Source: Candidatus Micrarchaeia archaeon (GTDB lineage Archaea > Micrarchaeota > Micrarchaeia > Micrarchaeales > CABMGC01). From it: a DNA stretch of 29,916 bases. The notes under the pieces are model-generated. The model made no database searches. It was not told the DNA's origin and saw only the letters and a program-made list of their open reading frames with translations. Positions 4,250 to 18,768 of this stretch are shown one piece after another. Numbering within the stretch: the first letter of the stretch is position 1; the number at the start of each line of letters is the position of its first letter. The stretch is from assembly GCA_049976845.1 (NCBI GenBank), contig JBMFHL010000007.1:1-29916 (forward strand), in the 5' to 3' direction. The translations under genes were made by a program, and so were the position numbers.

Positions 4250-6894
4250 AACTAAGCAAAGAATCTCTAAGGGAGCAATTCTCGAAAGACTTCAAGGAGT
4301 ACTACTCAACAGAGCTTTTTGAGAGAGAAGGATTTAAGCGTAGGAAGTGCAAGATATGCGGCAGGTATTTCTGGAGCATACGCGACAGGGACACTTGCGA
4401 TGACCCTATACACACACAGTACACATTCTTCAGCGACAAGCCAACCAACATAAGTTATTATGAATTTTGGAAGAAGTTCGAAGAATTCTTCAAGAAAAAT
4501 GGCCATGAAATAATAAAAAGGTACCCTGTGGTGAGCAGGTGGAGGCAGGATCTTTATTTCACTATAGCAAGTATACAGGATTTCCAGAGAATAGAAAACG
4601 GCAAGATGAGCTTTGAATACAATGCGAATCCGTTGATAGTGCCGCAGATATGCCTAAGATTTAGTGATATAGAAAATGTAGGCGTAACTGGAAGGCATTT
4701 CACAAGCTTCATGATGGCTGGGCAGCATGCTTTCAATTGGCCAAAAGAAGGCTACTGGCGTGACAAGACTATAGAGCTAAATTTCAATTTTCTTACTGGA
4801 GTGCTTGGCGTTAAAAAGGAAAACCTAGTATACCATGAAGATGTTTGGGCAATGGGCGATTTCTCTGAATTTGGGCCTTGCCTCGAAAGTTTTTCCAATG
4901 GCAACGAGCTCGTCAACAGTGTTTTCACGCAGTTTCAATCTTTTAATGGGAATGTCTCTGAGCTGCAGGGTAAGGTAGTTGATGTCGGCTGGGGCTTCGA
5001 AAGGCTGTTGTGGTTTTACACTGGTCATGAAAATGCCTACGAAGCAGTATTCCATAACCAGATAGAAGAGATAAAGAAAAAAACAGGTATAGAATTTGAT
5101 TCAAATCTTTTCAAGAAGTTTTCAATGGCTGCCGGAGAGCTAAATGTGGATGAAGTAAAGAATGTGGATGTGCTCGAGAAGAAGATATTCGAGAAGACAG
5201 GTATAACAAGCAAGATATACAACGAGAAGCTGAGGCCAATACAGGCCATATACTCTATATTGGACCATACAAGGACAACACTCTTTGCAGTTAATGATGG
5301 TTCATTGCCTTCAAACATAGGTGGCGGTTACAATCTTAGAGTATTGCTAAGGCGCATGTTCGCATTCATAGAAGAATACAAGCTTGACATAAGCATACAG
5401 GAGATTGCAAAGTCAATAGCAAAAGACCTGAATGGCTTGTATCCCGAGCTCGAGAGCTCATTGGACACTTTCGGCAATGTAGTGGAAGTTGAGAAAGAAA
5501 GGTATGCAAAAAGCAAGGCAAGCGCAAGGAAGCTAGTCGAAAGCATAATTGCAAAGAACAAGCCAATAGGTGCTGAGGAAGCAAAAGTCCTATACGAAAG
5601 CCATGGGGTAACACCTGAATTCATATCTGCAATAGCAAAGGAGAAAAAGATAGACATTGAACTTTCGGAGAACGTCTATTCCCAGATAGTGGAGAGCGAC
5701 TTTGTTAAGAAAGAGAAGGCAAAAAAGATAGAAATAGACCTGCCGGAACTCCCAGCAACAGCACAGCTCTATTACGAATTTGCAGTTGAGTCAAAGTCAA
5801 AGGTTCTTTATGCAAAAGACAAGTATATCGTATTGGATAAAACCCCATTCTATCCAGAAGGTGGCGGGCAGGAGCCCGATACCGGCACAATCAACGGCAT
5901 AAATGTAGTCAACGTGCAGAAAGTGGGGAATGTGATAGTGCACGTATTGGATTCAAGCATAAGTAAAAGCAGTTATTTTGAGCAGGGCTCGGAGGTTGTT
6001 GCAAAGGTAAACGAGGTGCGAAGGAACAGGCTCATAGCGCATCATACCGCTACGCATCTCATAAGCGCGTGCTCAAGGGAGATACTCGGCAAGCATGCGT
6101 GGCAGGAAGGTGCAAGCAAAGCTCCAGACAAGGCGCACATAGATATAGCACACTACGAAAAGCTTTCAGAAGAACAGGTTAAGGCAATAGAAAATAAAGT
6201 AAATAGTTACATAATGAACGGCATAAAAGTGTCGGTAAGCGAAATGGACAGGGGCGAGGCTGAAAGCAAGTACGGCTTCACAATATACCAGGGGCATGGC
6301 GTACCTGCGAAGAAGATGAGAATTGTAACAATAACCACAAAGGAGGGAAAGCTCATAGACGCAGAAGCATGCGGCGGCTTGCATGCTGTTAACAGGGAAT
6401 ACCTGCTTGGCTTGGTAAAGATAATAGGCTCGTACAGAATTCATGACGGTGTAGACAGGATGGAGTTCGTTGCAGGCGGAGCCGCGCTAGATTATTTCAG
6501 AATGGAAGATTCGCAATTGCAAAAAATGTCTCCGCTGCTCAATCTAGAAAAAGACAAGGTATACGAAGGCGTAGTTTCGTTGAAGGAGAAGCAGAAGGAG
6601 CTTTATAAAAATTATACCTTGGTAGTAGAGCTTGCTGCAAAGGCAATAGCAGATTCCAGCATTGAAAAAAGCGAATATGTAATAGAAATCAATGCCCCTG
6701 TCGAACTTATGAGGGGCGTGGCACAGGAGCTTACAAAAAAGCGCAACTGCATTGCGCTAGTCAAAAGCAAGGACTATTGTGTCTGTATAAGCTCAAGCAG
6801 CAAGAGTGCAATAGAGTTTGCCAAGTCCACGCTTAAGAACTTCTCAGGAGGGGGCTCTGCAAAGGTAGCTGAAGGCAAGCTCAAAGATAATTAG
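4246..6894 (+). CDS. alaS: Alanyl-tRNA synthetase, archaeal type
   Basis: N-terminal CKICGRYFWS, YPVVSRWRQDLYFTIASIQDFQ, NVGVTGRHFTSF, VDVGWGFER, editing motifs HTATH and CGGLH, C-terminal GGGS. The ATG at 4246 overlaps the upstream TGA. Confidence 0.97.
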   Translation: MKLSKESLREQFSKDFKEYYSTELFEREGFKRRKCKICGRYFWSIRDRDTCDDPIHTQYTFFSDKPTNISYYEFWKKFEEFFKKNGHEIIKRYPVVSRWRQDLYFTIASIQDFQRIENGKMSFEYNANPLIVPQICLRFSDIENVGVTGRHFTSFMMAGQHAFNWPKEGYWRDKTIELNFNFLTGVLGVKKENLVYHEDVWAMGDFSEFGPCLESFSNGNELVNSVFTQFQSFNGNVSELQGKVVDVGWGFERLLWFYTGHENAYEAVFHNQIEEIKKKTGIEFDSNLFKKFSMAAGELNVDEVKNVDVLEKKIFEKTGITSKIYNEKLRPIQAIYSILDHTRTTLFAVNDGSLPSNIGGGYNLRVLLRRMFAFIEEYKLDISIQEIAKSIAKDLNGLYPELESSLDTFGNVVEVEKERYAKSKASARKLVESIIAKNKPIGAEEAKVLYESHGVTPEFISAIAKEKKIDIELSENVYSQIVESDFVKKEKAKKIEIDLPELPATAQLYYEFAVESKSKVLYAKDKYIVLDKTPFYPEGGGQEPDTGTINGINVVNVQKVGNVIVHVLDSSISKSSYFEQGSEVVAKVNEVRRNRLIAHHTATHLISACSREILGKHAWQEGASKAPDKAHIDIAHYEKLSEEQVKAIENKVNSYIMNGIKVSVSEMDRGEAESKYGFTIYQGHGVPAKKMRIVTITTKEGKLIDAEACGGLHAVNREYLLGLVKIIGSYRIHDGVDRMEFVAGGAALDYFRMEDSQLQKMSPLLNLEKDKVYEGVVSLKEKQKELYKNYTLVVELAAKAIADSSIEKSEYVIEINAPVELMRGVAQELTKKRNCIALVKSKDYCVCISSSSKSAIEFAKSTLKNFSGGGSAKVAEGKLKDN

Positions 6895-6899
6895 GTGGT

Positions 6900-7397
6900 T
6901 TGATACTACTCTATACTGTGTTCGCTTACCCAATTATATACATACTGCCTGCGTATGTTGCAAATGGCGCCCCAGTAATATTCGGAGGCGGCAAGCCCCT
7001 TGACCTTGGGAAAAAACTTTTTGGCAAAAGAATATTTGGGGACCACAAAACAATAAAAGGGCTTTTGGCAGGCCTGGCGAGCGGTTTCATAGTCTCAATA
7101 GTACTATCTTTATTTTTTCCTTACATGCTTGCCATAGGAATATTGCTTACGGTAGGAACACACATTGGGGATCTGCTTGGCAGCTTCATAAAAAGGCGCA
7201 TAGGTGCAAAGCCAGGCGTGAACATACCAATAATGGATCAATACTTATTCTTCGTAATGGCGCTGCTTTTTGCTCTTCCCTTTGGGCATCTTCCCTCACT
7301 CTACGGCTTAATATTCCTGGTAATACTTACAGGGATATTGCACAGGCTTACAAATATTGCAGCCCATAAAGCCAAGCTGAAAGATGTGCCTTGGTGA
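6900..7397 (+). CDS. carS: CDP-archaeol synthase
   Basis: LPAYVANGAPV, PLDLG...RIFGDHKT, GDLLGSFIKRRIG, PIMDQ, C-terminal KLKDVPW. Start is TTG 6900 or ATA 6903. Confidence 0.92.
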   Translation: MILLYTVFAYPIIYILPAYVANGAPVIFGGGKPLDLGKKLFGKRIFGDHKTIKGLLAGLASGFIVSIVLSLFFPYMLAIGILLTVGTHIGDLLGSFIKRRIGAKPGVNIPIMDQYLFFVMALLFALPFGHLPSLYGLIFLVILTGILHRLTNIAAHKAKLKDVPW

Positions 7398-7406
7398 CTC
7401 TTGCGG

Positions 7407-8885
7407 CTAAGCAGTCCAGGCCCACGGTAGAAGATTTATAAGCAGTGCCACTACTATTGCAACAGCAAGCGCTTTTATAAAGAGCTTGTTTTTGAACTCC
7501 AGATCATAAATGCGCCATCCGTCAAATCCTGGTATTGGAAGAAGGTTTACCACAGCAACTAGGAAGTTGAGCATGAACGAAAGCGCCGCTACAGTGAAGA
7601 TGAAATACAACAGCGAGCCTAAAATTCCTATTGGCACATACTCCTCGCTCAGCAGCACGCCTATCTTTCCAGAGCTACCAGTCTTGAACGAATACGAGCC
7701 CAAATTCGTTTTTACACTTACAGTTGAAAATGGCTTGTCACCAGCTGCAGCGACGTCAAAGCTGCTGAAGTTTTTTATGCTGTAGCCGTTCCAGCTTATA
7801 ACTCTTGAGCCCGGTGCAATTATGCCATTGGCAGGGTACCCCGGGACTGTTGCAGTGACCATTATACTAGTTAAGCAAAAGCTGCCTATGTTGAAAAGCA
7901 GCACGAGCATTATCAGGAAGAAAAATATTGAGAAGAGCATGTTCGAAGAAATTCCCGCTATAAGCATGCGGTCCTGCTTCTCTTTGCTAAGCTTCTTCAT
8001 TTCTTTCTCATCGGGCTCGACGAATGCACCCATAGGTATAATGCCGAAAAGCAGAACTCCAACCGATTTGAGCTTGACGTTTGCTATTCTGGCAAGCACG
8101 CCATGGGAGAATTCGTGCACTACAAGCAGTATTACAAGTGAAACTATGCCGGCAAAGAGTGGCATTGTCAAGCCTGGGAGCACCGGCGCAATGCCTGGGA
8201 TCTGTGAGCTTATGAGTGAATTGTTCGGCGCCCCAGCAACCACTGTGGAGACAAAAAAGAATGTGGAATAAAGTATGCTCCCTGCATTGTAAAGTATCGA
8301 CACAAATGTAAATGTGGCGAAGCCTCCGACAAAAGACAGGGAGTCAAGAGCAATGCCCTCTACATTTACTCCTGTGTTCATTGTGCTGTTTGCCATCTCT
8401 CCGTTTATTTTTCCGGTAATTGAAGGTATATTAAGGAAACCCATTGAAATGGACAGGTAAGGCAGAATAAAGAGCAGAAAAACAACTATGGTAATTAATC
8501 CCAGTGCAAAAACCTTCTTGCTTATGAATCTCCTAAAAAAGGGATATGCAAATATGCCAAAGCTTACTGTAAGGCCCCATTCTGCCAATGCTATCCACAA
8601 TCCTTTGTGGGAGCGCGACAGCCTGTCGATGAAATCTATGCCGTGCCTGCCTCCAAGCATGTAAGCCCCAAACGATCCATTCAGGCGGTTTATCCTGCGT
8701 ATTGCCTCTCCTGTTAATACGAGCGCAAGCAGGGCATAAGCCCATCGCAGCAGTGCCCCAGCATTCATAAAATAGAGATATGCTATGATTGCAACCGCAG
8801 CTATGCCCACGGCTATGCTAAGCAGTATCCTTGGCTTTTTTTCAATCTCCAATTTAGCAGAAGCATTTTTTCTATGTGCAGCCAT
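7407..8885 (-). CDS. Site-2 protease (M50) membrane metalloprotease with PDZ-like insert
   Basis: HEFSHG zinc motif, GAFVEPD, AGISSN, NLLPIPGFDG; multiple TM helices. Confidence 0.92.
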   Translation of the reverse strand: MAAHRKNASAKLEIEKKPRILLSIAVGIAAVAIIAYLYFMNAGALLRWAYALLALVLTGEAIRRINRLNGSFGAYMLGGRHGIDFIDRLSRSHKGLWIALAEWGLTVSFGIFAYPFFRRFISKKVFALGLITIVVFLLFILPYLSISMGFLNIPSITGKINGEMANSTMNTGVNVEGIALDSLSFVGGFATFTFVSILYNAGSILYSTFFFVSTVVAGAPNNSLISSQIPGIAPVLPGLTMPLFAGIVSLVILLVVHEFSHGVLARIANVKLKSVGVLLFGIIPMGAFVEPDEKEMKKLSKEKQDRMLIAGISSNMLFSIFFFLIMLVLLFNIGSFCLTSIMVTATVPGYPANGIIAPGSRVISWNGYSIKNFSSFDVAAAGDKPFSTVSVKTNLGSYSFKTGSSGKIGVLLSEEYVPIGILGSLLYFIFTVAALSFMLNFLVAVVNLLPIPGFDGWRIYDLEFKNKLFIKALAVAIVVALLINLLPWAWTA

Positions 8886-10620: not shown

Positions 10621-11559
10621 GTGCATTTTATGAGGTTCAAAGTCCTTAAAAGGTCATTAGGCCAGTCAGCAATGGAATACCTGACCACTTATGGCTGGGC
10701 AATCCTGATAATCGTATTGACAATATCTGTTTTATATGAGCTCGGCGTATTCAACCCAAATACCTACGTCTTAAGCAGCTGTGTATTGCCCTCGGGCTTG
10801 GACTGCAGCAAATACCTATTATCGACAAACGGCATCCTTACTGTCACTATAAAGAATACGATGCAGGATCCTATAAATATAACAGCATTAGGGTGTGTAA
10901 CTAACGAAACAACTTCAGGCATGCAAGCGCCATACTCTCCAATTTCAAATCAAGTCTATATACCAGTAGGTGGGAATTACACATTCAATATATACTGCCC
11001 TGCAGCAAGGAACTCAACATTTACAAGCATTTACAAGGGCTACGTCTCTGTAAATTATACTGATGACGTCACTGGCTTTGCCCAAACTGTTTTTGGAAGG
11101 CTAATAATAAAAGCATCAAGCAAGCCAACCACAAGCACGACGCTAACAATCTCAACAACTTCAACATCGACAACAACAAAAACAACAACATCCTCTACCT
11201 CTACAACAACCTCAACCACAACAAAAACGACAACCTCAATACGCTACACAACTACAATAGCTGGATTCGTACAGTGTAACCTTGGTGAGGGTGATAATAC
11301 CTGGAGCTGTACCTGGAATTGGAACTGTGTAGGCGTAAATGCGATATGTGGTAGCAATCCTGATACATGTAATTCAGGTACTCCATCAGATGAAATTGGC
11401 ACATGTAAGTGTTCTGCAACGCAAGATGGTTGTAGTTATTCATGGGACTGCGAAGCTACTCAATCACTAAAGTGCGGCGGCACTCCCTGTCCTTCATGTG
11501 GTAGCAGTGTTGGCACATGTAGTGAAGGTTATTCGACTCCATATACCGGTACTTGCTAA
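10621..11559 (+). CDS. Class III signal-peptide (pilin-like) surface protein with Thr/Ser stalk and 14-Cys C-terminal domain
   Basis: KRSLG|QSAMEYLTTYGWAILII (Glu at +5), Cys-paired N-domain, a T/S-rich run, and a terminal ~98 aa with 14 Cys. Start is GTG 10621 or ATG 10630. Confidence 0.8.
   Translation: MHFMRFKVLKRSLGQSAMEYLTTYGWAILIIVLTISVLYELGVFNPNTYVLSSCVLPSGLDCSKYLLSTNGILTVTIKNTMQDPINITALGCVTNETTSGMQAPYSPISNQVYIPVGGNYTFNIYCPAARNSTFTSIYKGYVSVNYTDDVTGFAQTVFGRLIIKASSKPTTSTTLTISTTSTSTTTKTTTSSTSTTTSTTTKTTTSIRYTTTIAGFVQCNLGEGDNTWSCTWNWNCVGVNAICGSNPDTCNSGTPSDEIGTCKCSATQDGCSYSWDCEATQSLKCGGTPCPSCGSSVGTCSEGYSTPYTGTC
11125..11256 (+). repeat. Low-complexity ACA-rich region encoding a Thr/Ser linker (PTTSTTLTISTTSTSTTTKTTT...)
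   Basis: Runs of ACA/ACC/TCA codons, with the unit STTTKTTTS present twice. Confidence 0.85.
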
Positions 11560-11583
11560 CAATGAAATACTAGCCCTGAAAAC

Positions 11584-12673
11584 GATATTGTCCAATAATT
11601 AATTCAGTTCCACTATTTCAAAAGGCATAAAAGCCCGTGGGTGCATACTGGTTTTTGGCGACTAGCATGCATGTAAATAAGAGAAATTGGAATTTATATA
11701 ACTTACAGTTGGTCAACAGAGGAAGGCCTTCCACATATGTAGAATCCGCGTTTGCAGATAATGGTGCAGAAGTCTCGAGACTTAACAAAGACAAGGTTGG
11801 ACACTCGTATGTATATTTGAATATTGTTATACTTTCTGTATTTGCATTAAAATGTGTATTCAAAATCCCTTATAGGGCAGCAGAAGGAACTATCAGGGAT
11901 TATGCAGAGAGAAATAATATTTTTGAATACCCCAATTTTAGGACGATATAGTTGAGAGTACCGCAAATGAAGAAAGAAGGTATAAAGTTCATGATATATG
12001 ATAAGGGCAAAGATGTCGACGTGCTTATTGATTCGACCGGCATAAAAATCTTCAAACGATGGAGAATATAGGGGCACAAAGTATGGGAAAAGGGGGTATG
12101 GACAAAAATATATGTCGCAGTAGACAGAAAAACACATAGGATACTTAATATTATAGTTACAGATGATCACATAGGAAATGTAAGGGAATTTGAACCTTTA
12201 ATCGAACCCGTAAAAGAAGCAAACACAATTGGCAATGCAGCTGCAGACGGTGCTTATAATTCAGAAGAGAATTTCAGGTATTGCGACGATAACAACATAA
12301 ATGCATTTATACCCGTGAGGATCAATTCTATAGGAAAACGCAGCAAACATAGGCGCAAACATGTCGTAGAGCAGTTAGATATAATTCGTAAAAGAGGTTA
12401 CAATTGCAATATTATACCTCCAAAGGAAATACGAGTGATAAATCAAATAAATTGGAAAAACAGACAGGTTATCACATGCGATCATTGGTTGAATCTACTT
12501 TTTCTGTATTCAAAAATGTATTTGGGGAGTATACTTTTTCAAAAAATAAAGATATGAAAGAGAAGGAATTACTTTTAAAAGCGGTTGCCTATAACAGATT
12601 TTTAATCTGAGATTAAAATTGTTGAAAAAGTAGTGCAAATATTATTCATTTACTGGAATTGTTGGACAACGCC
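11584..12673 (+). mobile_element. Decayed IS5-family insertion sequence (IS903/ISH1-like), about 1.09 kb
   Basis: Imperfect terminal inverted repeats GATATTGTCCAATAATT (11584-11600) and AATTGTTGGACAACGCC (12657-12673), 13/17 matches, enclosing transposase fragments. AT-richer than the flanks. No clear target-site duplication. Confidence 0.85.
11667..12610 (+). pseudogene. IS5-family DDE transposase pseudogene
   Basis: RNWNLYNLQLVNRG, IDSTGIK, WTKIYVAVD, ADGAYNS, IPVR, GYHMRSLVESTFSVFK. Broken by an in-frame TAG (11949-11951), compensating frameshifts at about 12055 and 12095, and a frameshift at about 12460. Confidence 0.88.
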
Positions 12674-12755
12674 TTACAAAAGCACTTTATTTATATTCTT
12701 ATAAACTATTGTTTGTATAATTAGGGAAATTGCAGTTTCAACAGGCATTGTCGCA

Positions 12756-14465
12756 TTGCTGCTCTCTTATACTGTCTTTACTTACCAGCAATTATTTTCG
12801 CCATATATGATGGCTTCAGTGCTTCTGCTTCCTGTAATCTCGCTACTCCTCTTCGTATTTTCTAATAAGTTTGCGAAGAAGAAAGCTTATCTTGCGCTTG
12901 GCATTTCATCAATAGTGTTTATTTTGCTGCTTAACCTAGCATATATACATCCATTACCTGGCGCATATGAAAACATATTGCGTGTATTTGTCCTTGTCTC
13001 GATTGCGACTGCAATATCTATATTCTTCATATACTTGATAGGAATAGTTTCTTCAAGGCATTTTGGAGTTTTTTATACAATCGTGCTTATAATATTGGCT
13101 TCTTCCTTTGCCTATATTTCGATGTACGGCTTCTCCAACGCCTCATGGAACGGCGTGGACGAGCTTGCCGCAAACTACTACTCTGCATACCTTTCCTTGC
13201 ACGGCGTCAACCCATATACGACAAGCATGCAGACGATATATAATGCAAGGCAAATCTTTCCAACAGTGCTGCTCAACGGCTCTTACGAAGATTTTTATGC
13301 ATATCCAGCAATGAGCTTCATTGCCTATATACCGCTTGTCGCGATTGGCATCGGGAGCAAATCGCTACTACTATTTGTTGCAGTGCTTATCTTTTTCGCC
13401 ATAACCTCTTCGTCTATCATCTACATACATTCAGGCAGCGACATGCACATGCTAATTCCAATAGCAATTTGGCTTATAGGATGCTATGCACTTGTTGGAG
13501 TTTCGAACGCACTCCTCGTTTCAATTTTCTTAGTCCTTGCATTTGTATATAAGAATAGGGGCTTTGCTTCGGGAATTTTCCTTGGCATTGCGGCAAGCGT
13601 TTCTCAGCTTGCTTGGTTCGCGCTGCCCTTCTTCTTAATACTCACATATAGGAGCAAAGGCAAATTAGGCATGCAGGTTCTTGGTGCATCTGCATCGTTT
13701 ATCGCAATCAATGTTTACTTCTTTGCACTTTCGCCAGGCGCATTCATCGGAAGCATATTTAGCATAATGAGCCCTAATACGCTTGTTTTCTTTGGCCAAG
13801 ACATAGCCCAGTTCTTTTACGCTTTTTATCCTGTTTCACAGCTTTATATCTCTGCATTGTCTATAACGGTGCTCCTCTTTTCAATGCTTGTATACTATAT
13901 TTACCCTAAGAGCGCAAAGTTGCTACTGGCGCTTGCGCCAATGCTCATATTCTTTGTATCGTGGCGCAACGTATCAATATATGGCCTTGCCTACATACCA
14001 TTGCTCCTTGCGGTTTATTATGACAAAAGCAAAGTGAAAACTACAGATATGCTGAAGAAGAAATATTATATAATCTATGGAATAGTTGCGATAATTGCAC
14101 TCTTTTCCTTGTTTGCAGTATATTCTCACAGTGTTTATGCTGCCGAAAAGACAATATCAATAAATCACATCTATCCTATAATAGGCGTAAGTAGCTACGG
14201 CTATTCTATGCAAGGCTTCATTGCCAATGTCTCAAGCAATGCAAATCGCAATGAAACAGTTACATTCTACATGATAAGCAGAAGCCCAAACGAAGAAGCG
14301 TACATGCTTGGCTCCTTGCTTCCTAAGCTTCGTGCAGGCTCCACAATGAACTATACTGTTAATTTTATACTGCCGCTTGTAAACAGCAACACAAAGGTAC
14401 TTGTTTTTGCATTCAGCAAAGACTACATAACCAGCAATGTTACAACACTCTCAAAGCTAAGATGA
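12756..14465 (+). CDS. Polytopic membrane protein, GT-C/GT87-like glycosyltransferase fold, probably 5'-truncated
   Basis: More than 10 TM helices; loop VDELAANYYSAYLSLHGVNPY and FYAYPAMSF; C-terminal extracellular beta-rich domain. Hydrophobic coding-like sequence continues in frame upstream to the IS end, with one TAA at 12702. Confidence 0.6.
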   Translation: MLLSYTVFTYQQLFSPYMMASVLLLPVISLLLFVFSNKFAKKKAYLALGISSIVFILLLNLAYIHPLPGAYENILRVFVLVSIATAISIFFIYLIGIVSSRHFGVFYTIVLIILASSFAYISMYGFSNASWNGVDELAANYYSAYLSLHGVNPYTTSMQTIYNARQIFPTVLLNGSYEDFYAYPAMSFIAYIPLVAIGIGSKSLLLFVAVLIFFAITSSSIIYIHSGSDMHMLIPIAIWLIGCYALVGVSNALLVSIFLVLAFVYKNRGFASGIFLGIAASVSQLAWFALPFFLILTYRSKGKLGMQVLGASASFIAINVYFFALSPGAFIGSIFSIMSPNTLVFFGQDIAQFFYAFYPVSQLYISALSITVLLFSMLVYYIYPKSAKLLLALAPMLIFFVSWRNVSIYGLAYIPLLLAVYYDKSKVKTTDMLKKKYYIIYGIVAIIALFSLFAVYSHSVYAAEKTISINHIYPIIGVSSYGYSMQGFIANVSSNANRNETVTFYMISRSPNEEAYMLGSLLPKLRAGSTMNYTVNFILPLVNSNTKVLVFAFSKDYITSNVTTLSKLR

Positions 14466-14644
14466 TATATTTACCATCCTGCATGTCACTCCTCACAAAC
14501 GCGTCTCCGTATTTTTTGAGCTTACACAAATAGTCTCAAACAGCATTTCATATTATGCAAGGTATAAAAGTTCGAGCTTATAAATATAAATTGTGCCGGA
14601 GAGCGCAAGGTTAATACTCTTAGAAGTTGGTGCGGTTATTTTTT

Positions 14645-16588
14645 ATGGAAGTGGATTACAGCAATGAATCCAATATAAGTCAGTTGGAAAAGTCTAAGCT
14701 CAGCATGGAGCACCTGAAGATAATGCTGATATCAGGCACAAGCTTCTTTACCGATGCATATGATCTCTTCATAATAGGCGTCGTATTAATAATGCTGAAA
14801 TCTATTTACTCCCCCTCGCCGCTTATGCTGGGCCTTTTGGCAAGCTCCGCGCTTTTCGGTGCCGTTATTGGGCCTGCATTATTTGGGTATCTTGGCGACA
14901 AATTTGGAAGGAAATATATATACTGGGTAACAGTCTCAATACTTGCCATAGCCGCTTTGGGCTCCGCGCTTTCGCAGACCCTGATCCTATTAGTGATATG
15001 GCGGCTTTTTCTAGGCATAGGCATAGGCGGAGATTATCCGCTCAGTTCAACAATAGTTGCCGAATACTCAAACAAAATTGACAGGGGGAAACTAATTGCA
15101 TCAACATTCGCAATGCAGGGCTTTGGAATAATTGCTGGTGTTGCACTGGCGCTTCTGCTTCTCTACATGGGCGTGCCGAATGCGATAGCTTGGCGTCTGT
15201 TATTGGCTATTGGGGCTGTGCCTGCGCTTCTTGTAATACCTGCAAGGAAAAAGCTCAAGGAGACAATATGGTATACCAAGCTCATAGCCAGCAAGGCGAA
15301 GGCGCAGGCAAGCGCAAGCCTGAGAAGCATAATAAAGAAGCGCCCTGGCATACTCATAGGTACGGCACTCTCATGGTTCCTGCTTGATGTTACATACTAT
15401 GGTACAGGTATATTTACGCCTTATCTAGCAACCCTGTTTGGCATGAAAGGTATACTTGCCCCCACTTTAACCACAGGAGTAATCTTCCTGATTTTTGCAG
15501 TTCCTGGGTACTGGGTTGCTGTGCTTCTTATCGACAAAGAAGGGCGCAAGCCCATGCAGGCAATAGGGTTCTTGGCAATAACAGTATCTTTCTTCCTGAT
15601 ACTGCTCTTCGGAAGCTACCTGATTGCGAGCTTATTGCCTGTTTTTCTTATAATCTACGGTCTTTCGTTCTTCTTCAGCAACTATGGCCCAAACACAACA
15701 ACATATGTCTATCCTGCAGAATTATACCCTACTGAATTGAGAGCAAGAGGGCACGGAATTGCAGCTACATTTGGCAAGCTTGGTGCCGCCATTTCTACGG
15801 TTCTTTTCCCAATACTAATACCTATAATTGGCAAGTTCATGCTCATAGGTTTGTTGGGCTTTGTCTCGCTGCTAGGTTTCATCGTGACAATAATACTATT
15901 GCCTGAAACAAAGCAGAAATCCCTTTTCGAGACATCAAGGGAATACGAGCTTCATCTAATCTCCACAGACCTCTCCTCCGAATTTATCAGCATAATTGGG
16001 CACATGCAGAGAGCATCGAGCACAATGTCGACAATGTTCAGTAGCGATGTAATCAAAACACGCAGGGAATTTTTCTCCTCGATTAAAAATGAGGAGCACG
16101 AGGCAGACATAAATGTGAAGAATATAATGGAGTATATAGCGCTTCACGAAGCAAATCCAGATACATTCAGCGACCTTGCAAACCTTGCAAGGAGGCTTGA
16201 TGACATAATAGATCTGGAAGAAGCTGTAGCATCACGGGTAAACATCTATTCAATAAAAAAGAGCAACAACTATCTAAGGGATTTCTCTGCAATAATAAAC
16301 AAGAGCGTAAGTAACATAAACCTAGCCATAAACGAGCTTATAGAATTCGAAGCGCAAAAGAACATAAAGGGCATAGGGGAAATGCACCGCAAGATAGCAA
16401 AGCTTGAGAACGAAGCAGACGAGATATTGAGGATGTCCCTAAGCAATATAATGAAGAGCAGCAATTTCAAGGAAATAATGAAATACAAAGAAATATATGA
16501 GCTGCTCGAGCTAATAACTGACAAATGCGTTGACGTAATGGACGTAGTAAGCGACATAACTATTAGATACTTATACAGCAATAAATAA
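14645..16588 (+). CDS. PHS-family (Pho84-like) MFS phosphate:H+ symporter fused to a C-terminal DUF47/PhoU-like domain
   Basis: MFS part: FFTDAYDLF, GDKFGRK, GIGGDYPLS, FAMQGFG, SWFLLDVTYYG, NYGPNTTT, PAELYPT..RARGHG, GKLGA, LPETK. DUF47 part from about 15960: EHEAD, LDDIID, LENEAD, KEIYELLELITDKCVD. One uninterrupted ORF. Confidence 0.88.
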   Translation: MEVDYSNESNISQLEKSKLSMEHLKIMLISGTSFFTDAYDLFIIGVVLIMLKSIYSPSPLMLGLLASSALFGAVIGPALFGYLGDKFGRKYIYWVTVSILAIAALGSALSQTLILLVIWRLFLGIGIGGDYPLSSTIVAEYSNKIDRGKLIASTFAMQGFGIIAGVALALLLLYMGVPNAIAWRLLLAIGAVPALLVIPARKKLKETIWYTKLIASKAKAQASASLRSIIKKRPGILIGTALSWFLLDVTYYGTGIFTPYLATLFGMKGILAPTLTTGVIFLIFAVPGYWVAVLLIDKEGRKPMQAIGFLAITVSFFLILLFGSYLIASLLPVFLIIYGLSFFFSNYGPNTTTYVYPAELYPTELRARGHGIAATFGKLGAAISTVLFPILIPIIGKFMLIGLLGFVSLLGFIVTIILLPETKQKSLFETSREYELHLISTDLSSEFISIIGHMQRASSTMSTMFSSDVIKTRREFFSSIKNEEHEADINVKNIMEYIALHEANPDTFSDLANLARRLDDIIDLEEAVASRVNIYSIKKSNNYLRDFSAIINKSVSNINLAINELIEFEAQKNIKGIGEMHRKIAKLENEADEILRMSLSNIMKSSNFKEIMKYKEIYELLELITDKCVDVMDVVSDITIRYLYSNK

Positions 16589-16719: not shown

Positions 16720-17157
16720 GTGGCATGCATGCTGAGTGGCAAGCCTGTTGCATACCTGTGCTCCTCAAGCATGGAGCCAAAGGAGCTAATAGCGCATGCA
16801 GCAAAGATCTCTTCGAAAAAGTGCTTTGTGCAGTTGTTTGCAGACAAGCCTAACTTAGCAGGAAGGCTTCTGCCTGCATACCTCAATGCCCTGCTAAGGG
16901 AAAAGGATTGTACAATGCGTTCTAATTCTATAAGCATGGAATTCCTGTTGCTTGCAAGTACGAGCATGAATATAAAGAACGCAATACGCAATTATGGCAT
17001 CTCATCAAGCAATAAATTCATACTTTTTGCCACAAGCGAGAAGATTGCTAAAAAATTCAAAGACATTGGAAAAGTAAAGGTAATAAAGAAATTAAAACTG
17101 TCCCTTGTAACGGAAGAGGCGGCAAAGGTTGCCGCAGCAGAGCTTCTAGAGGAATAG
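16720..17157 (+). CDS. cgi121: KEOPS subunit Cgi121-like protein
   Basis: VQLF...AYLNAL...MRSNSISMEFLLLASTSMNIKNAIRNYGI pattern, 145 aa. Start is GTG 16720 or ATG 16729. Confidence 0.65.
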   Translation: MACMLSGKPVAYLCSSSMEPKELIAHAAKISSKKCFVQLFADKPNLAGRLLPAYLNALLREKDCTMRSNSISMEFLLLASTSMNIKNAIRNYGISSSNKFILFATSEKIAKKFKDIGKVKVIKKLKLSLVTEEAAKVAAAELLEE

Positions 17158-18066
17158 AGAAGTTATTGCATAAGAAAGCAGCAAACTAACAACCGCTCCG
17201 CCAATCCATGTAAATGCTATAGCAATTGCCGGTTTCTTGAGTATTATCCTGTTTTTGTAGCTAAGCCCGGTGCCATAGACGCTTGCCACGAATGTCTGTG
17301 TATTTGATAGTGGTATTCCCAAAAAGGTTGCAATCTCCACAAGAATTACCGATACAAACTGCGAGTTTATCGAGTTTAAATACCTCATTGAAATTATATC
17401 GCTGCTTATGCGCCTCAACTCTCCTCCGTTTAGGAAAATGCTCCCTATCAATATGCCAAGCAGAGCAGCAATCATTGCAAAGGAGTTATTCGGCATCGAA
17501 GAATAAACGAGCCCTATTGTATTTGCGCCAAGCGCAAAGGCCGAGAAGAAGGAAAGGAAGATAAGCACAAGTTTAATTCTTTTTATACTCCTCCAGATCT
17601 TTTTGCCATTGACAATCGAGTGAGACAAGTTCATGAGCGGGGCTATCAACAGGATAGAAGCAACTGGCGCGGCAACCCAAAAAAGCACCATAAGCATAAC
17701 GAATCCCCAGCCTATACTAAAATGCATTGCCAGGCTTACTCCAACCAATATGCCGGTAAAGTTAACCGCCAAAGACTGCGGTACTCTCATCTTGTGTGCA
17801 ATGAGGAATACCACTATCGCTGTAAACAATGCAACTATCAATAACGGCTCAAACCGATATGGAAATATTGCATTGACTCCACGCCTCAGCATACCTCCTT
17901 CTAAAATTAGACCAAGTGCGTATCCTATTATGGTAATTGATACTCCCGTTTTTTTGCTTACAATTTTGCTGCCTATAACTGAACCAGAGCATGCTGGCAG
18001 ATTATTTCCAGAGACAAGCATAATTAGAATAAAAGAAAGTATAAAAGCGAACAAAGTTTCTATCAA
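17146..18066 (-). CDS. PiT-family inorganic phosphate/anion transporter with non-canonical signatures
   Basis: Two-repeat PiT architecture: SGNNL...G and PQSLA...GI; LGANTIG and GIPLSNTQ...G. GGTG-N5-TTG start. Downstream of a DUF47 gene. Confidence 0.8.
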   Translation of the reverse strand: MIETLFAFILSFILIMLVSGNNLPACSGSVIGSKIVSKKTGVSITIIGYALGLILEGGMLRRGVNAIFPYRFEPLLIVALFTAIVVFLIAHKMRVPQSLAVNFTGILVGVSLAMHFSIGWGFVMLMVLFWVAAPVASILLIAPLMNLSHSIVNGKKIWRSIKRIKLVLIFLSFFSAFALGANTIGLVYSSMPNNSFAMIAALLGILIGSIFLNGGELRRISSDIISMRYLNSINSQFVSVILVEIATFLGIPLSNTQTFVASVYGTGLSYKNRIILKKPAIAIAFTWIGGAVVSLLLSYAITSLFL

Positions 18067-18126: not shown

Positions 18127-18768
18127 TTATGAAATAATGGAAGACATTATAGTGAGATATATATCTGAAGAGTCCTCGCAGTTGTCAAGCATGTCGTCAG
18201 CCTGGTGTGCGACCTCGAACAAGTGGTAAAAAGACCTGAAACCTATCTTTGCATTGTATGCGAAATCGAACAAGTTGTCTTTTATCTCGTCTCCCTTCTC
18301 CTCATAGCCCTCTATCTCCTTCCTTAACCTCTTTATTTCAGCAAGGTCGTCGCTTGCCTGCATCTTCCTCAGCATAATCAGCGCCTGCCTTGCCAGGGCA
18401 GTCATCTCCTTTAAACTGCTTGTCATAAGCAAACGGGCCTTTTTGTTTTTGATTTTATACCTTCCTATCTCTCTTGCAAGGTTATACATTGAATCGACTA
18501 TACTATCCTCTTTGTCAACGAGTGCTAGCATATCATCGATCAGGTTTGGTGCAACGCCTCCGCTGGTGACCATATTTGTTATCTCAAATGCAACATCATC
18601 TGATCTTTTTTCAAGAACCCTAAGCGAATCAAGGCTACTTTTCCCCTCTATGAGTTTATCAAGCATCTCGTTTGTGTCAAGGGCTACACCTATTATCGTG
18701 TTGAATTTTTTTATAATCCCTTCTTCGCCTCCTTGCAGGATTCTGTCGATTATTCCCATATCAAACAC
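18127..18768 (-). CDS. DUF47/PhoU-like phosphate transport regulator
   Basis: All-helical with a duplicated acidic pattern: LEKRSD...EDSIVD and YEEKGD...ADDMLDNCED. Immediately upstream of the PiT gene. Start is GTG 18768 or ATG 18759. Confidence 0.85.
   Translation of the reverse strand: MFDMGIIDRILQGGEEGIIKKFNTIIGVALDTNEMLDKLIEGKSSLDSLRVLEKRSDDVAFEITNMVTSGGVAPNLIDDMLALVDKEDSIVDSMYNLAREIGRYKIKNKKARLLMTSSLKEMTALARQALIMLRKMQASDDLAEIKRLRKEIEGYEEKGDEIKDNLFDFAYNAKIGFRSFYHLFEVAHQADDMLDNCEDSSDIYLTIMSSIIS

Follow-up and report, generated by a model that had tools for sequence, protein, structure and literature searches.

The control of phosphate transport by PhoU-family accessory proteins is a long-standing open question. 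In eukaryotes, the SPX carriers (SPX-MFS/PHT5/VPT1, Pho87/Pho90 and XPR1) possess a cytoplasmic helical sensor that tunes flux to phosphate status, and the Na/Pi cotransporters NptA/YjbB (PF02690 + PF01895) join a phosphate carrier to a C-terminal PhoU-like helical bundle. According to the available text of a large PitR survey, deletion of the PhoU domain of Staphylococcus aureus NptA alters phosphate-responsive expression; the same text describes PitR-type proteins as separate proteins of ~205-215 amino acids (aa) that are paired with PiT/PitA genes, and S. aureus PitR, a single-domain PF01865 protein, as controlling phosphate homeostasis with its cognate transporter (PMC13170248). The subject of this study is a different arrangement, found in a 29,916-nucleotide stretch of DNA (contig JBMFHL010000007.1, positions 1 to 29,916 of the forward strand; referred to throughout as the window) from a Candidatus Micrarchaeia archaeon (assembly GCA_049976845.1). 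Here one gene, at 14645..16588 on the + strand, encodes a PHS-type carrier of the major facilitator superfamily (MFS) that runs on without a stop into a DUF47/PitR-like domain.

We note that each half of this protein has well described relatives. With the PHS carriers (TC 2.A.1.9: Saccharomyces cerevisiae Pho84, Serendipita indica PiPT, structures 7sp5/8fvz, and rice OsPHT1;11, structures 9kmq/9kou) it shares the 12-helix MFS fold, 31-34% identity over the carrier and identical residues at the phosphate/proton site, and with OsPHT1;11 also a conserved 'PET..SL.E.SGE' C-terminal segment. It differs from them in being archaeal, in a much shorter loop between transmembrane helices 6 and 7 (TM6-TM7), and in its 200-residue DUF47 bundle, which is in none of the matched solved PHS structures. 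With the PitR/DUF47 proteins (S. aureus PitR; structures 3l39, 2olt and 2iiu) it has in common a six-helix bundle, eight acidic residues and the association with a phosphate carrier, but the fused tail is covalently joined to an unrelated MFS carrier, and the fused tails form their own clade inside DUF47. NptA/YjbB belong to another carrier family with another bundle family, and only the fold is common (template modelling (TM) scores of 0.66-0.71 to PhoU structures). The SPX carriers share the concept only, that of a cytoplasmic helical sensor fused to a phosphate carrier; the protein described here is without an SPX domain, and its DUF47 domain is C-terminal whereas SPX is N-terminal, and we regard the likeness as a functional analogy only. 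NptA with its fused PhoU domain and the eukaryotic SPX-carrier fusions are the closest described analogues.

A full-text literature search, with subscription journals and InterPro architecture tables outside its scope, found no paper on an MFS-DUF47 fusion. The PitR survey, in its available text, reports single-domain architectures only, and the words 'fused', 'fusion', 'archaea' and 'MFS' appear nowhere in that text (PMC13170248).

One reading frame for carrier and tail

The frame is uninterrupted on the + strand from 14627 (TTG) or 14645 (ATG) to the stop at 16586-16588. An initial annotation of the locus had described a single open reading frame (ORF) that passes the LPETK motif without a stop, and translation of the ORF to 647 aa confirms this. 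The parts of the gene are as follows.

14645..16588, + strand: fusion of a PHS-type MFS phosphate carrier with a DUF47/PitR-like domain, 647 aa and a stop codon (ORF translation, Pfam, AlphaFold2)
14627, + strand: alternative TTG start of the fused gene
14645..15916, + strand: MFS/PHS transporter domain, residues 1-424, 12 TM helices, ending in LPETK (Sugar_tr, MFS_1, TIGR00887, Foldseek)
15917..15973, + strand: linker, residues 425-443 (alignment, fused-vs-unfused comparison, model)
15974..16579, + strand: DUF47/PhoU_div six-helix bundle, residues 444-645 (PF01865, 3l39, tail-only model, Foldseek)
14563..14591, + strand: candidate archaeal promoter, A/T-rich TATA-like stretches TATAAAAG and TTATAAATATAAA (by eye)

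The carrier part spans residues ~18-424 and the DUF47 part residues ~444-645; the TATA-like stretches lie 55-80 nucleotides (nt) 5' of the ATG. A Pfam hidden Markov model (HMM) scan, which the initial annotation had named as a check, found Sugar_tr (E 6.8e-42), MFS_1 (E 1.4e-35) and PhoU_div, PF01865, all on the same 647-aa protein. The last of these matches covers residues 457-639 (E 4.7e-9, 36.3 bits against a gathering cut-off of 24.4) and positions 27-212 of the 214 in the profile. Structure prediction, named likewise, gave both a PHS-like and a DUF47-like fold: the full-length AlphaFold2 model, with 80 homologues as input, consists of 12 long helices and then a six-helix tail, with a mean predicted local distance difference test (pLDDT) score of 91.1 and a predicted TM-score (pTM) of 0.81. 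The fusion in the window is genuine and is no assembly artefact; in a by-eye reading of the junction (15900-16020) no homopolymer run was seen.

The carrier half

The initial annotation's recognition of a 12-TM PHS transporter with its characteristic site residues was borne out, all of the named motifs being present. These are D37/D40 (FTDAYD), D130/Y131 (GDYP), Q158 (AMQG), W244/D248/Y252 (WFLLDVTYY), N346/N350 (NYGPN) and K378 (GKLG), and in an alignment of 80 fused homologues the site residues are invariant or at least 90% conserved. Seven of them (D37, D40, Y131, Q158, D248, N350 and K378) do not vary at all among the 33 fused and 47 unfused homologues compared; the exceptions among the fused rows are an E at D130 in three and a change of W244 and of Y252 in one each. 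Sequence alignment gives the following correspondence with PiPT.

D37/D40 of the fused protein: PiPT D45/D48
D130/Y131 of the fused protein: PiPT D149/Y150
Q158 of the fused protein: PiPT Q177
W244/D248/Y252 of the fused protein: PiPT W320/D324/Y328
N350 of the fused protein: PiPT N431
K378 of the fused protein: PiPT K459

The PiPT numbering agrees with the variants Y150A, Y328F, Asp324Glu and K459Q entered in the Protein Data Bank (PDB); Q177, W320, Y328 and N431 of PiPT have ligand roles as well. In yeast Pho84, the available text of PMC5159500 assigns proton coupling to Asp178, Pi release to Tyr179, substrate/phosphate binding to Asp358 and Lys492, and proton shuffling to Asp76/Asp79; these residues correspond to D149, Y150, D324, K459 and D45/D48 of PiPT, respectively. 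From the conservation of the site we infer that the substrate is inorganic phosphate (Pi), carried with proton coupling.

Among solved structures, the nearest relatives are the same two carriers by sequence and by fold. The closest structures by sequence are OsPHT1;11 (9kmq, E 2.4e-67) and then PiPT (7sp5, E 3.4e-57), with sugar porters and SV2A trailing far behind. The top Foldseek matches of the model are likewise PiPT and OsPHT1;11 chains (E 1e-18 to 1e-16, 29-34% identity), at target TM-scores of 0.77-0.82 and ahead of sugar porters and SV2A; PiPT 7sp5_A, for instance, matches with an E of 1.1e-18 and a target TM-score of 0.82.

Four positions near the phosphate site, within the membrane core, separate the fused archaeal carriers from the unfused and mostly bacterial ones: residues 254, 257, 342 and 346 are T, F, F and N in the former and N, S, Y and E in the latter. 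The N that the fused forms have at 346 is also found in PiPT and OsPHT1;11, whereas the bacterial relatives have E.

One very divergent MFS-DUF47 fusion, P0128 (657 aa, 33% identity across the full length), has W in place of the glutamine and R in place of the lysine of the phosphate site, and E in place of N346. Its substrate may be different; its tail still clusters with the other fused tails.

The linker and the DUF47 tail

Following LPETK (residues 420-424) the chain continues for 223 residues, of which ~200 lie in the DUF47 bundle. The linker has the pattern K-x-K/R-S-L-x-E-T-S-x-E-x-E-L, in which L427, S431 and E433 are invariant among the 80 aligned fused homologues. The fused forms also conserve E435 and L436, where the unfused forms mostly show a gap. 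Model confidence is lowest here (pLDDT ~65, residues 431-440).

The tail bears the motifs E484-H-E-A-D488, L-D519-D-I-I-D523, E588-N-E-A-D592 and E622-L-I-T-D626, that is, four acidic pairs (E484/D488, D519/D523, E588/D592 and E622/D626) that sit on helices 2, 3, 5 and 6. The duplicated acidic pattern that the initial annotation had read in the tail is therefore complete, with all eight positions present and invariant across the fused proteins. Each of the eight is also 98-100% conserved in 129 DUF47 proteins of stand-alone length, and when 24 tails are aligned together with 26 stand-alone proteins they are the sole invariant columns. A further acidic residue, D637, is invariant only in the fused forms and is present in 21% of the stand-alone set.

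The assignment of the tail to DUF47, likewise made in the initial annotation, was upheld by the PF01865 match over its cut-off and by crystal structure 3l39, whose entry title is 'putative PhoU-like phosphate regulatory protein' and whose source is Bacteroides thetaiotaomicron. The tail matches 3l39 by sequence (E 3.6e-13, residues 457-642) and by fold: 3l39 ranks first in a Foldseek search with the tail-only model (pLDDT 95.7, pTM 0.92), at TM-scores of 0.85/0.89 and a root-mean-square deviation of 2.0 Å over 201 columns. The Shewanella DUF47 structures 2olt and 2iiu rank next, and then the PhoU proteins 1t8b, 2i0m, 1t72, 1sum, 1xwm and 4q25 (TM 0.56-0.71). The Pfam scan gave no match of the tail to the PhoU repeat profile PF01895 at E <= 0.01, and no SPX domain (PF03105) in the fused protein. 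Because all eight acidic residues are kept as in stand-alone DUF47 proteins, the tail is a complete and bona fide DUF47 domain with its presumed ligand site intact. The usual DUF47 context, a stand-alone protein of ~210 aa beside a PiT/PitA gene, is not that of the fused tail.

A different combination of related domains was seen in P0225 (451 aa, an 8-member cluster), in which PhoU repeats (PF01895, two stretches) are followed by DUF47 (PF01865) in one chain.

Distribution of the fusion

A search of a 5.8-billion-protein database, in which 8000 candidates were scored and 1089 matched, was examined for its best 120 clusters. PF01865 occurs together with PF00083 in 115 of these, in proteins of ~620-745 aa and at identities down to 39%. 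Of the five clusters without PF01865, three are short fragments, and the two that are full-length (P0036 and P0054) match our own DUF47 HMM. The database names are 'MFS transporter', 'PHS family inorganic phosphate transporter-like MFS transporter' and, once, 'putative sialic acid transporter'. The organisms belong to Micrarchaeota, Marsarchaeota, Thermoplasmata and Thermoprotei (Tardisphaera saccharovorans included), with one Methanothrix label, and many homologues come from assemblies labelled mine drainage or bear acidophile names.

A set of genomic loci, limited to one genome per species and scored with our own HMMs, kept 80 loci of 598 relatives. DUF47 lies in the same gene in 29 of the 80, all archaeal: by label, 10 are Micrarchaeota, 4 Marsarchaeota, 13 Thermoplasmata, 1 Thermoprotei and 1 'archaeon UBA168'. 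Contig ends cut two loci, and the remaining 49 are unfused, 48 of them labelled bacterial and one Thermoplasmatota (L084); the unfused bacterial relatives include organisms whose names suggest an acid habitat, such as Sulfobacillus and Mesoaciditoga. The 'archaeon UBA168' locus (L027, 4990-7468) is unusual in that the carrier ORF (4990-6816) overlaps the DUF47 ORF (6770-7468) in a different frame, an arrangement that may reflect a frameshift error, a pseudogene or a genuinely split gene.

Among 151 genomes sampled from the window's phylum, 17 hold the full-length fusion. These fall in two families of one order, here called f1 (5 of 26 genomes, the window's genome included) and f2 (12 of 45). 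The architecture is thus widespread in public data of acid-habitat archaea and is not rare. The initial annotation had taken a PHS-MFS-DUF47 fusion to be undescribed, and had weighed the case of an architecture already widespread and characterised: no paper on the fusion was found, and in this the claim stands, but the architecture is widespread.

Unfused PHS-type carriers were also seen in two genomes of the same order (G016:C1:656121-657431 and G128:C5:100971-102269). Each has one in-frame stop inside the match (TGA and TAG, respectively), and both are possibly decaying genes.

Phosphate supply in the host genome and phylum

The host genome is a 731-kb assembly of 52 contigs that is 90% complete. 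In it a PhoU domain, PstB above cut-off, PPK1 and PPX were all not found, an absence that at this completeness is not proof. Across the phylum sample, PstB above cut-off occurs in 2 of the 151 genomes and in none of the 71 of families f1 and f2, and PHO4 in 42 of the 151, namely in 19 of 25 f1 genomes plus the window's own and in 7 of 45 in f2, among others.

The two families differ in how the fusion and PiT are combined. All five fusion-bearing f1 genomes also have PiT. Within f2, one of the 12 fusion-bearing genomes (G141) has PiT, and the other 11 are without a PHO4 match; fusion and PiT are near-complementary in this family, and no phosphate importer other than the fusion is recognisable in those 11 genomes, which speaks for uptake as the main task of the fused protein. 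We note that the phylum genomes are a sample and that kin among them are not independent.

Origin and phylogeny

A search with the tail against 1.84 billion representatives returned 1417 matches at E <= 0.001, and the best 150 consist mainly of stand-alone proteins of ~205-215 aa with 26-39% identity. In a FastTree phylogeny of 163 rows, all 33 sampled fused tails form one clade with a Shimodaira-Hasegawa (SH)-like support of 99, and even the tails that belong to the most divergent carriers (P0128, P0171 and P0127) fall within it. Apart from the fused tails, the clade contains only four short proteins (P0173, P0144, P0140 and P0121), which may be fragments or split genes.

The carriers were placed in a quick IQ-TREE phylogeny of 81 rows, from which truncated, split or odd loci (L018, L019, L027, L029, L040, L042 and L066) were dropped. 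Here 31 of the 34 fused carriers cluster with L084, the unfused Thermoplasmatota carrier, at a support of only 80 (SH-like approximate likelihood ratio test, SH-aLRT), fused L081 and P0171 sit among the bacterial unfused carriers, and P0128 is a very long branch. The carrier tree supports no decision on a single origin, and the tail tree supports one tail lineage. The simplest reading, though not a proven one, would be that the fusion arose once and then spread among archaea with acid habitats in common.

No stand-alone DUF47 was detected within 6 kb of the carrier gene in the 80 loci with our own DUF47 HMM, which does find the divergent stand-alone DUF47 of the window at 2.2e-17, and among the same 80 loci no split-gene precursor was seen apart from L027. 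Derivation of the tail from the stand-alone DUF47 that neighbours it in the window was considered and rejected, the two proteins being 22% identical and the neighbour lying on a very long separate branch.

In one Micrarchaeaceae locus, L046, an IS605 OrfB/TnpB-like gene (5314-5967, +; OrfB_IS605 and Cas12f1-like_TNB matches) stands directly 5' of the fused transporter, a placement that is consistent with the patchy distribution of a mobile gene.

The neighbourhood in the window and in related loci

Other genes in the window are common housekeeping genes of archaea (AlaRS, CDP-archaeol synthase, FEN1, aIF2-beta, RIO1, Cgi121, ERCC4 nuclease, PolX and GDH). The features nearest to the subject of this study are the following.

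17146..18066, - strand: PiT/PHO4-family phosphate carrier, 306 aa (PF01384, E 8.4e-20)
18127..18768, - strand: stand-alone DUF47, 213 aa (PF01865, E 2.2e-8)
12756-14465: 569-aa multi-helix membrane protein without a Pfam match, with a 71%-identical DNA match on a small G036 contig
12404..12610, + strand: remnant of a probable DDE transposase C-terminus (DDE_Tnp_1, E 4.2e-4; 20.6 bits, below the cut-off of 23, a weak match)

The PiT gene lies 0.6 kb 3' of the fused gene, with Cgi121 in between. At 306 aa its product is shorter than is usual for PHO4, and the genome has no other PHO4 match. The stand-alone DUF47 gene adjoins it on its 5' side on the same strand and is the genome's only other DUF47 match; its product aligns with the fused tail at 22% identity over 90 residues (BLASTP E 0.006) and is a very long branch in the tail tree. 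The genome consequently holds both the separate and the fused form of the DUF47-carrier association.

The PiT and DUF47 pair is kept in same-genus genomes that are without the fusion. One of these, G024, retains the order RIO1 - ERCC4 - DUF47 - PiT - Cgi121 ... FEN1 - helix-turn-helix (HTH), and between Cgi121 and FEN1 (L098, G024:C5 4169-6912) it carries a phosphoribosyltransferase and a DUF2341 protein. In the window this slot is filled by the fused gene and by positions 10621-14465, which hold an ORF of unknown function, the transposase remnant and the membrane protein; the remnant lies in a low-GC stretch (guanine-plus-cytosine fraction of 0.347 at 12001-13000). The fused gene occupies a variable slot beside a conserved PiT pair.

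In the ORF at 10621-11559, about 50 nt near its start (10663-10714) match many places in related genomes at 80-87% identity, and about 90 nt (11146-11239) match a tandem run of copies at G024:C3:121220-122325, which suggests a multi-copy family with a conserved N-terminus and repeat units.

A scan of neighbours covered 130 ORFs in 26 other fused loci, and in none of the 26 is a PiT or DUF47 gene a neighbour. A GNAT acetyltransferase recurs 5' of the fused gene in five Micrarchaeota- or Marsarchaeota-labelled loci, probably as plain synteny. In 5 of the 13 Thermoplasmata-labelled loci the fused gene is adjoined by a gene for a PhoU-domain protein with two PhoU repeats, four of the five also bearing an AbrB/MazE-type DNA-binding domain; no such neighbour was seen in the 13 fused loci labelled Micrarchaeota, Marsarchaeota, Thermoprotei or UBA168. 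The combination of PhoU and AbrB/MazE makes these proteins candidate phosphate-responsive transcription factors. Their genes are listed by locus.

L021 8581-9690, - strand: PhoU-domain neighbour gene
L024 7998-9077, - strand: PhoU-domain neighbour gene
L026 7998-10172, - strand: PhoU-domain neighbour gene
L045 7998-9326, - strand: PhoU-domain neighbour gene
L060 3848-4849, - strand: PhoU-domain neighbour gene

Locus L012 belongs to the record of Ca. Micrarchaeum A_DKE, an archaeon in co-culture according to PMC8975820; a term search for expression data in the readable supplements of that paper gave no entry for the fused transporter.

Proposed mechanism and alternatives

We consider it probable, with modest confidence, that the fused protein is a single-chain, proton-coupled Pi importer of the PHS type whose cytoplasmic DUF47 tail acts as a brake or sensor. 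Both ends of a 12-helix MFS carrier are cytoplasmic, and the tail is therefore expected to be cytoplasmic too. At the cytoplasmic face its acidic sites would bind phosphate or a metal-phosphate species as a signal from the cytosol, and the bound tail would slow the carrier or lock it in a phosphate-replete cell. Such a brake might guard against an overload of phosphate and protons, since the symporter would be powered by the very large pH gradient found in acid habitats. We suppose that the tail would act directly on the carrier and not via a two-component system; direct control seems more plausible than signalling to a regulator because no PhoU-domain gene was found in the host genome and the genome is small. 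Where no other phosphate carrier is recognisable, uptake would run mainly through the fusion.

The model offers some indication of how the halves might be arranged. The carrier makes up only ~67% of the chain, and the whole-chain pTM exceeds what a confidently folded carrier alone could give, which suggests that the model positions the two domains relative to each other in a defined manner and with some confidence. Co-folding of residues 1-436 with residues 445-647 returned an interaction prediction score from aligned errors (ipSAE) of 0.00 in both runs, for which controls were not folded, a value that counts neither for nor against contact.

Several observations weigh against this interpretation. 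The best NCBIfam match of the protein, TIGR00887 (phosphate:H+ symporter; 278.9 bits, E 8.9e-83), stays far below the equivalog cut-off of 610.3, and we therefore use the term PHS-type and do not call the protein a TIGR00887 equivalog; the cut-off is also unreached in 14 of 14 control prokaryote genomes, and since none of these reaches it the model appears to be tuned to eukaryotic members. Similarly, the tail misses the TIGR00153 cut-off of 104.3 (32.5 bits), as does the window's own stand-alone DUF47 (28.8 bits). The fused gene is missing in both other genomes of the same genus (0 of 2). The fused-vs-unfused comparison revealed no conserved cytoplasmic surface that is specific to fused forms; the differences are confined to the membrane core (T254, F257, F342 and N346) and the linker (E435 and L436), and there is consequently no sequence sign of a docking site. 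The available text of PMC11705898 reports that S. aureus PitR dimerises and that two-hybrid contact with PhoR or transporters was not detected, and direct DUF47-carrier contact is for this reason unproven even in S. aureus. Furthermore, since unfused bacterial relatives bear acid-habitat names, a brake is not required at low pH. Finally, all of the functional steps set out above are inferred.

Alternatively, the tail might be a signalling output that reports the state of transport to, for example, a PhoU-domain transcription regulator, and the protein would then be a transceptor. PhoU itself is thought to link PstB to PhoR. The PhoU-domain neighbours of the Thermoplasmata-labelled loci, four of them with an AbrB/MazE-type domain, would suit such a role, the homodimers of PitR and PhoU described in the available text of PMC11705898 make bundle-bundle contacts plausible, and S. 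aureus PitR affects PhoPR-dependent expression according to the available text of PMC13170248. However, the window's genome is without a PhoU-domain match at 90% completeness, none of the 13 loci outside Thermoplasmata has such a neighbour, and a 731-kb genome leaves little room for dedicated regulators, and we think this reading unlikely.

The protein might also serve mainly in export of metal-phosphate or phosphate, for metal detoxification in mine drainage, with the acidic sites of the tail sensing metal. In some PhoU crystal structures the E/D-x3-D pairs of the PhoU-like bundle coordinate metal clusters, and many of the homologues, as noted, come from mine-drainage assemblies or acidophile-named organisms. 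There is also a precedent in Metallosphaera sedula, whose Pho84-like carriers are proposed, in the available text of PMC5859850, to export copper-phosphate and protons. The M. sedula model needs polyphosphate breakdown, however, and PPK1 and PPX were not found in this genome; proton-coupled export would have to run against the inward proton gradient of acid habitats; and as 11 of the 12 fusion-bearing f2 genomes are without another recognisable importer, uptake there would fall to the fusion or to the host. Export as the main function is in our view improbable.

Nor do we see much probability in a tail that is structural only, a module for dimerisation or stability without sensing. The same homodimers of PitR and PhoU (PMC11705898, available text) would fit it, as would the failure to find a fused-specific docking surface on the carrier, but the eight acidic residues are invariant down to 39% identity and are not needed by a purely structural module.

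The last alternative, a misassembly or a sequencing error that erased a stop between two genes, for which the different frames of carrier and tail in L027 could speak, has next to no probability and is effectively refuted already, because the identical fusion is kept across many independent assemblies: the same continuous frame is found in 28 other independent genome loci, L012, a record titled complete genome, holds the continuous fusion, 16 further genomes of the phylum sample hold it (G138 as two pieces on two contigs), it is present in 115 of the 120 best protein clusters, and the linker sequence is itself conserved.

Significance

Beyond this locus, PhoU-like bundles might gate phosphate carriers physically and irrespective of carrier family, a PitR-type domain, its ligand site intact, having moved from PiT onto an MFS carrier and braking its proton-driven uptake in cis as a sensor of cytosolic phosphate or metal-phosphate; we advance this idea tentatively, as a serious possibility. 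From the conservation of a natural fusion between a PitR-type domain and a carrier it can be argued that the domain does its work at the carrier, and from the presence of an MFS carrier instead of PiT that the mechanism is transferable to another family. The fusion also provides a one-polypeptide object for cryo-electron microscopy and reconstitution, in which both halves are confidently modelled and both have solved relatives. What is new from this window is the adjacent canonical PiT-DUF47 pair, the placement in a variable slot, the single tail clade and the near-complementarity with PiT within family f2.

For the biology of DPANN archaea it matters that, in one sampled Micrarchaeota family, most genomes with the fusion have no other phosphate importer that can be recognised. 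If family-independent gating is true, the fused protein would be a natural 'Rosetta stone', a single-chain model for the action of PhoU and PitR, and an archaeal counterpart of the eukaryotic SPX-carrier fusions.

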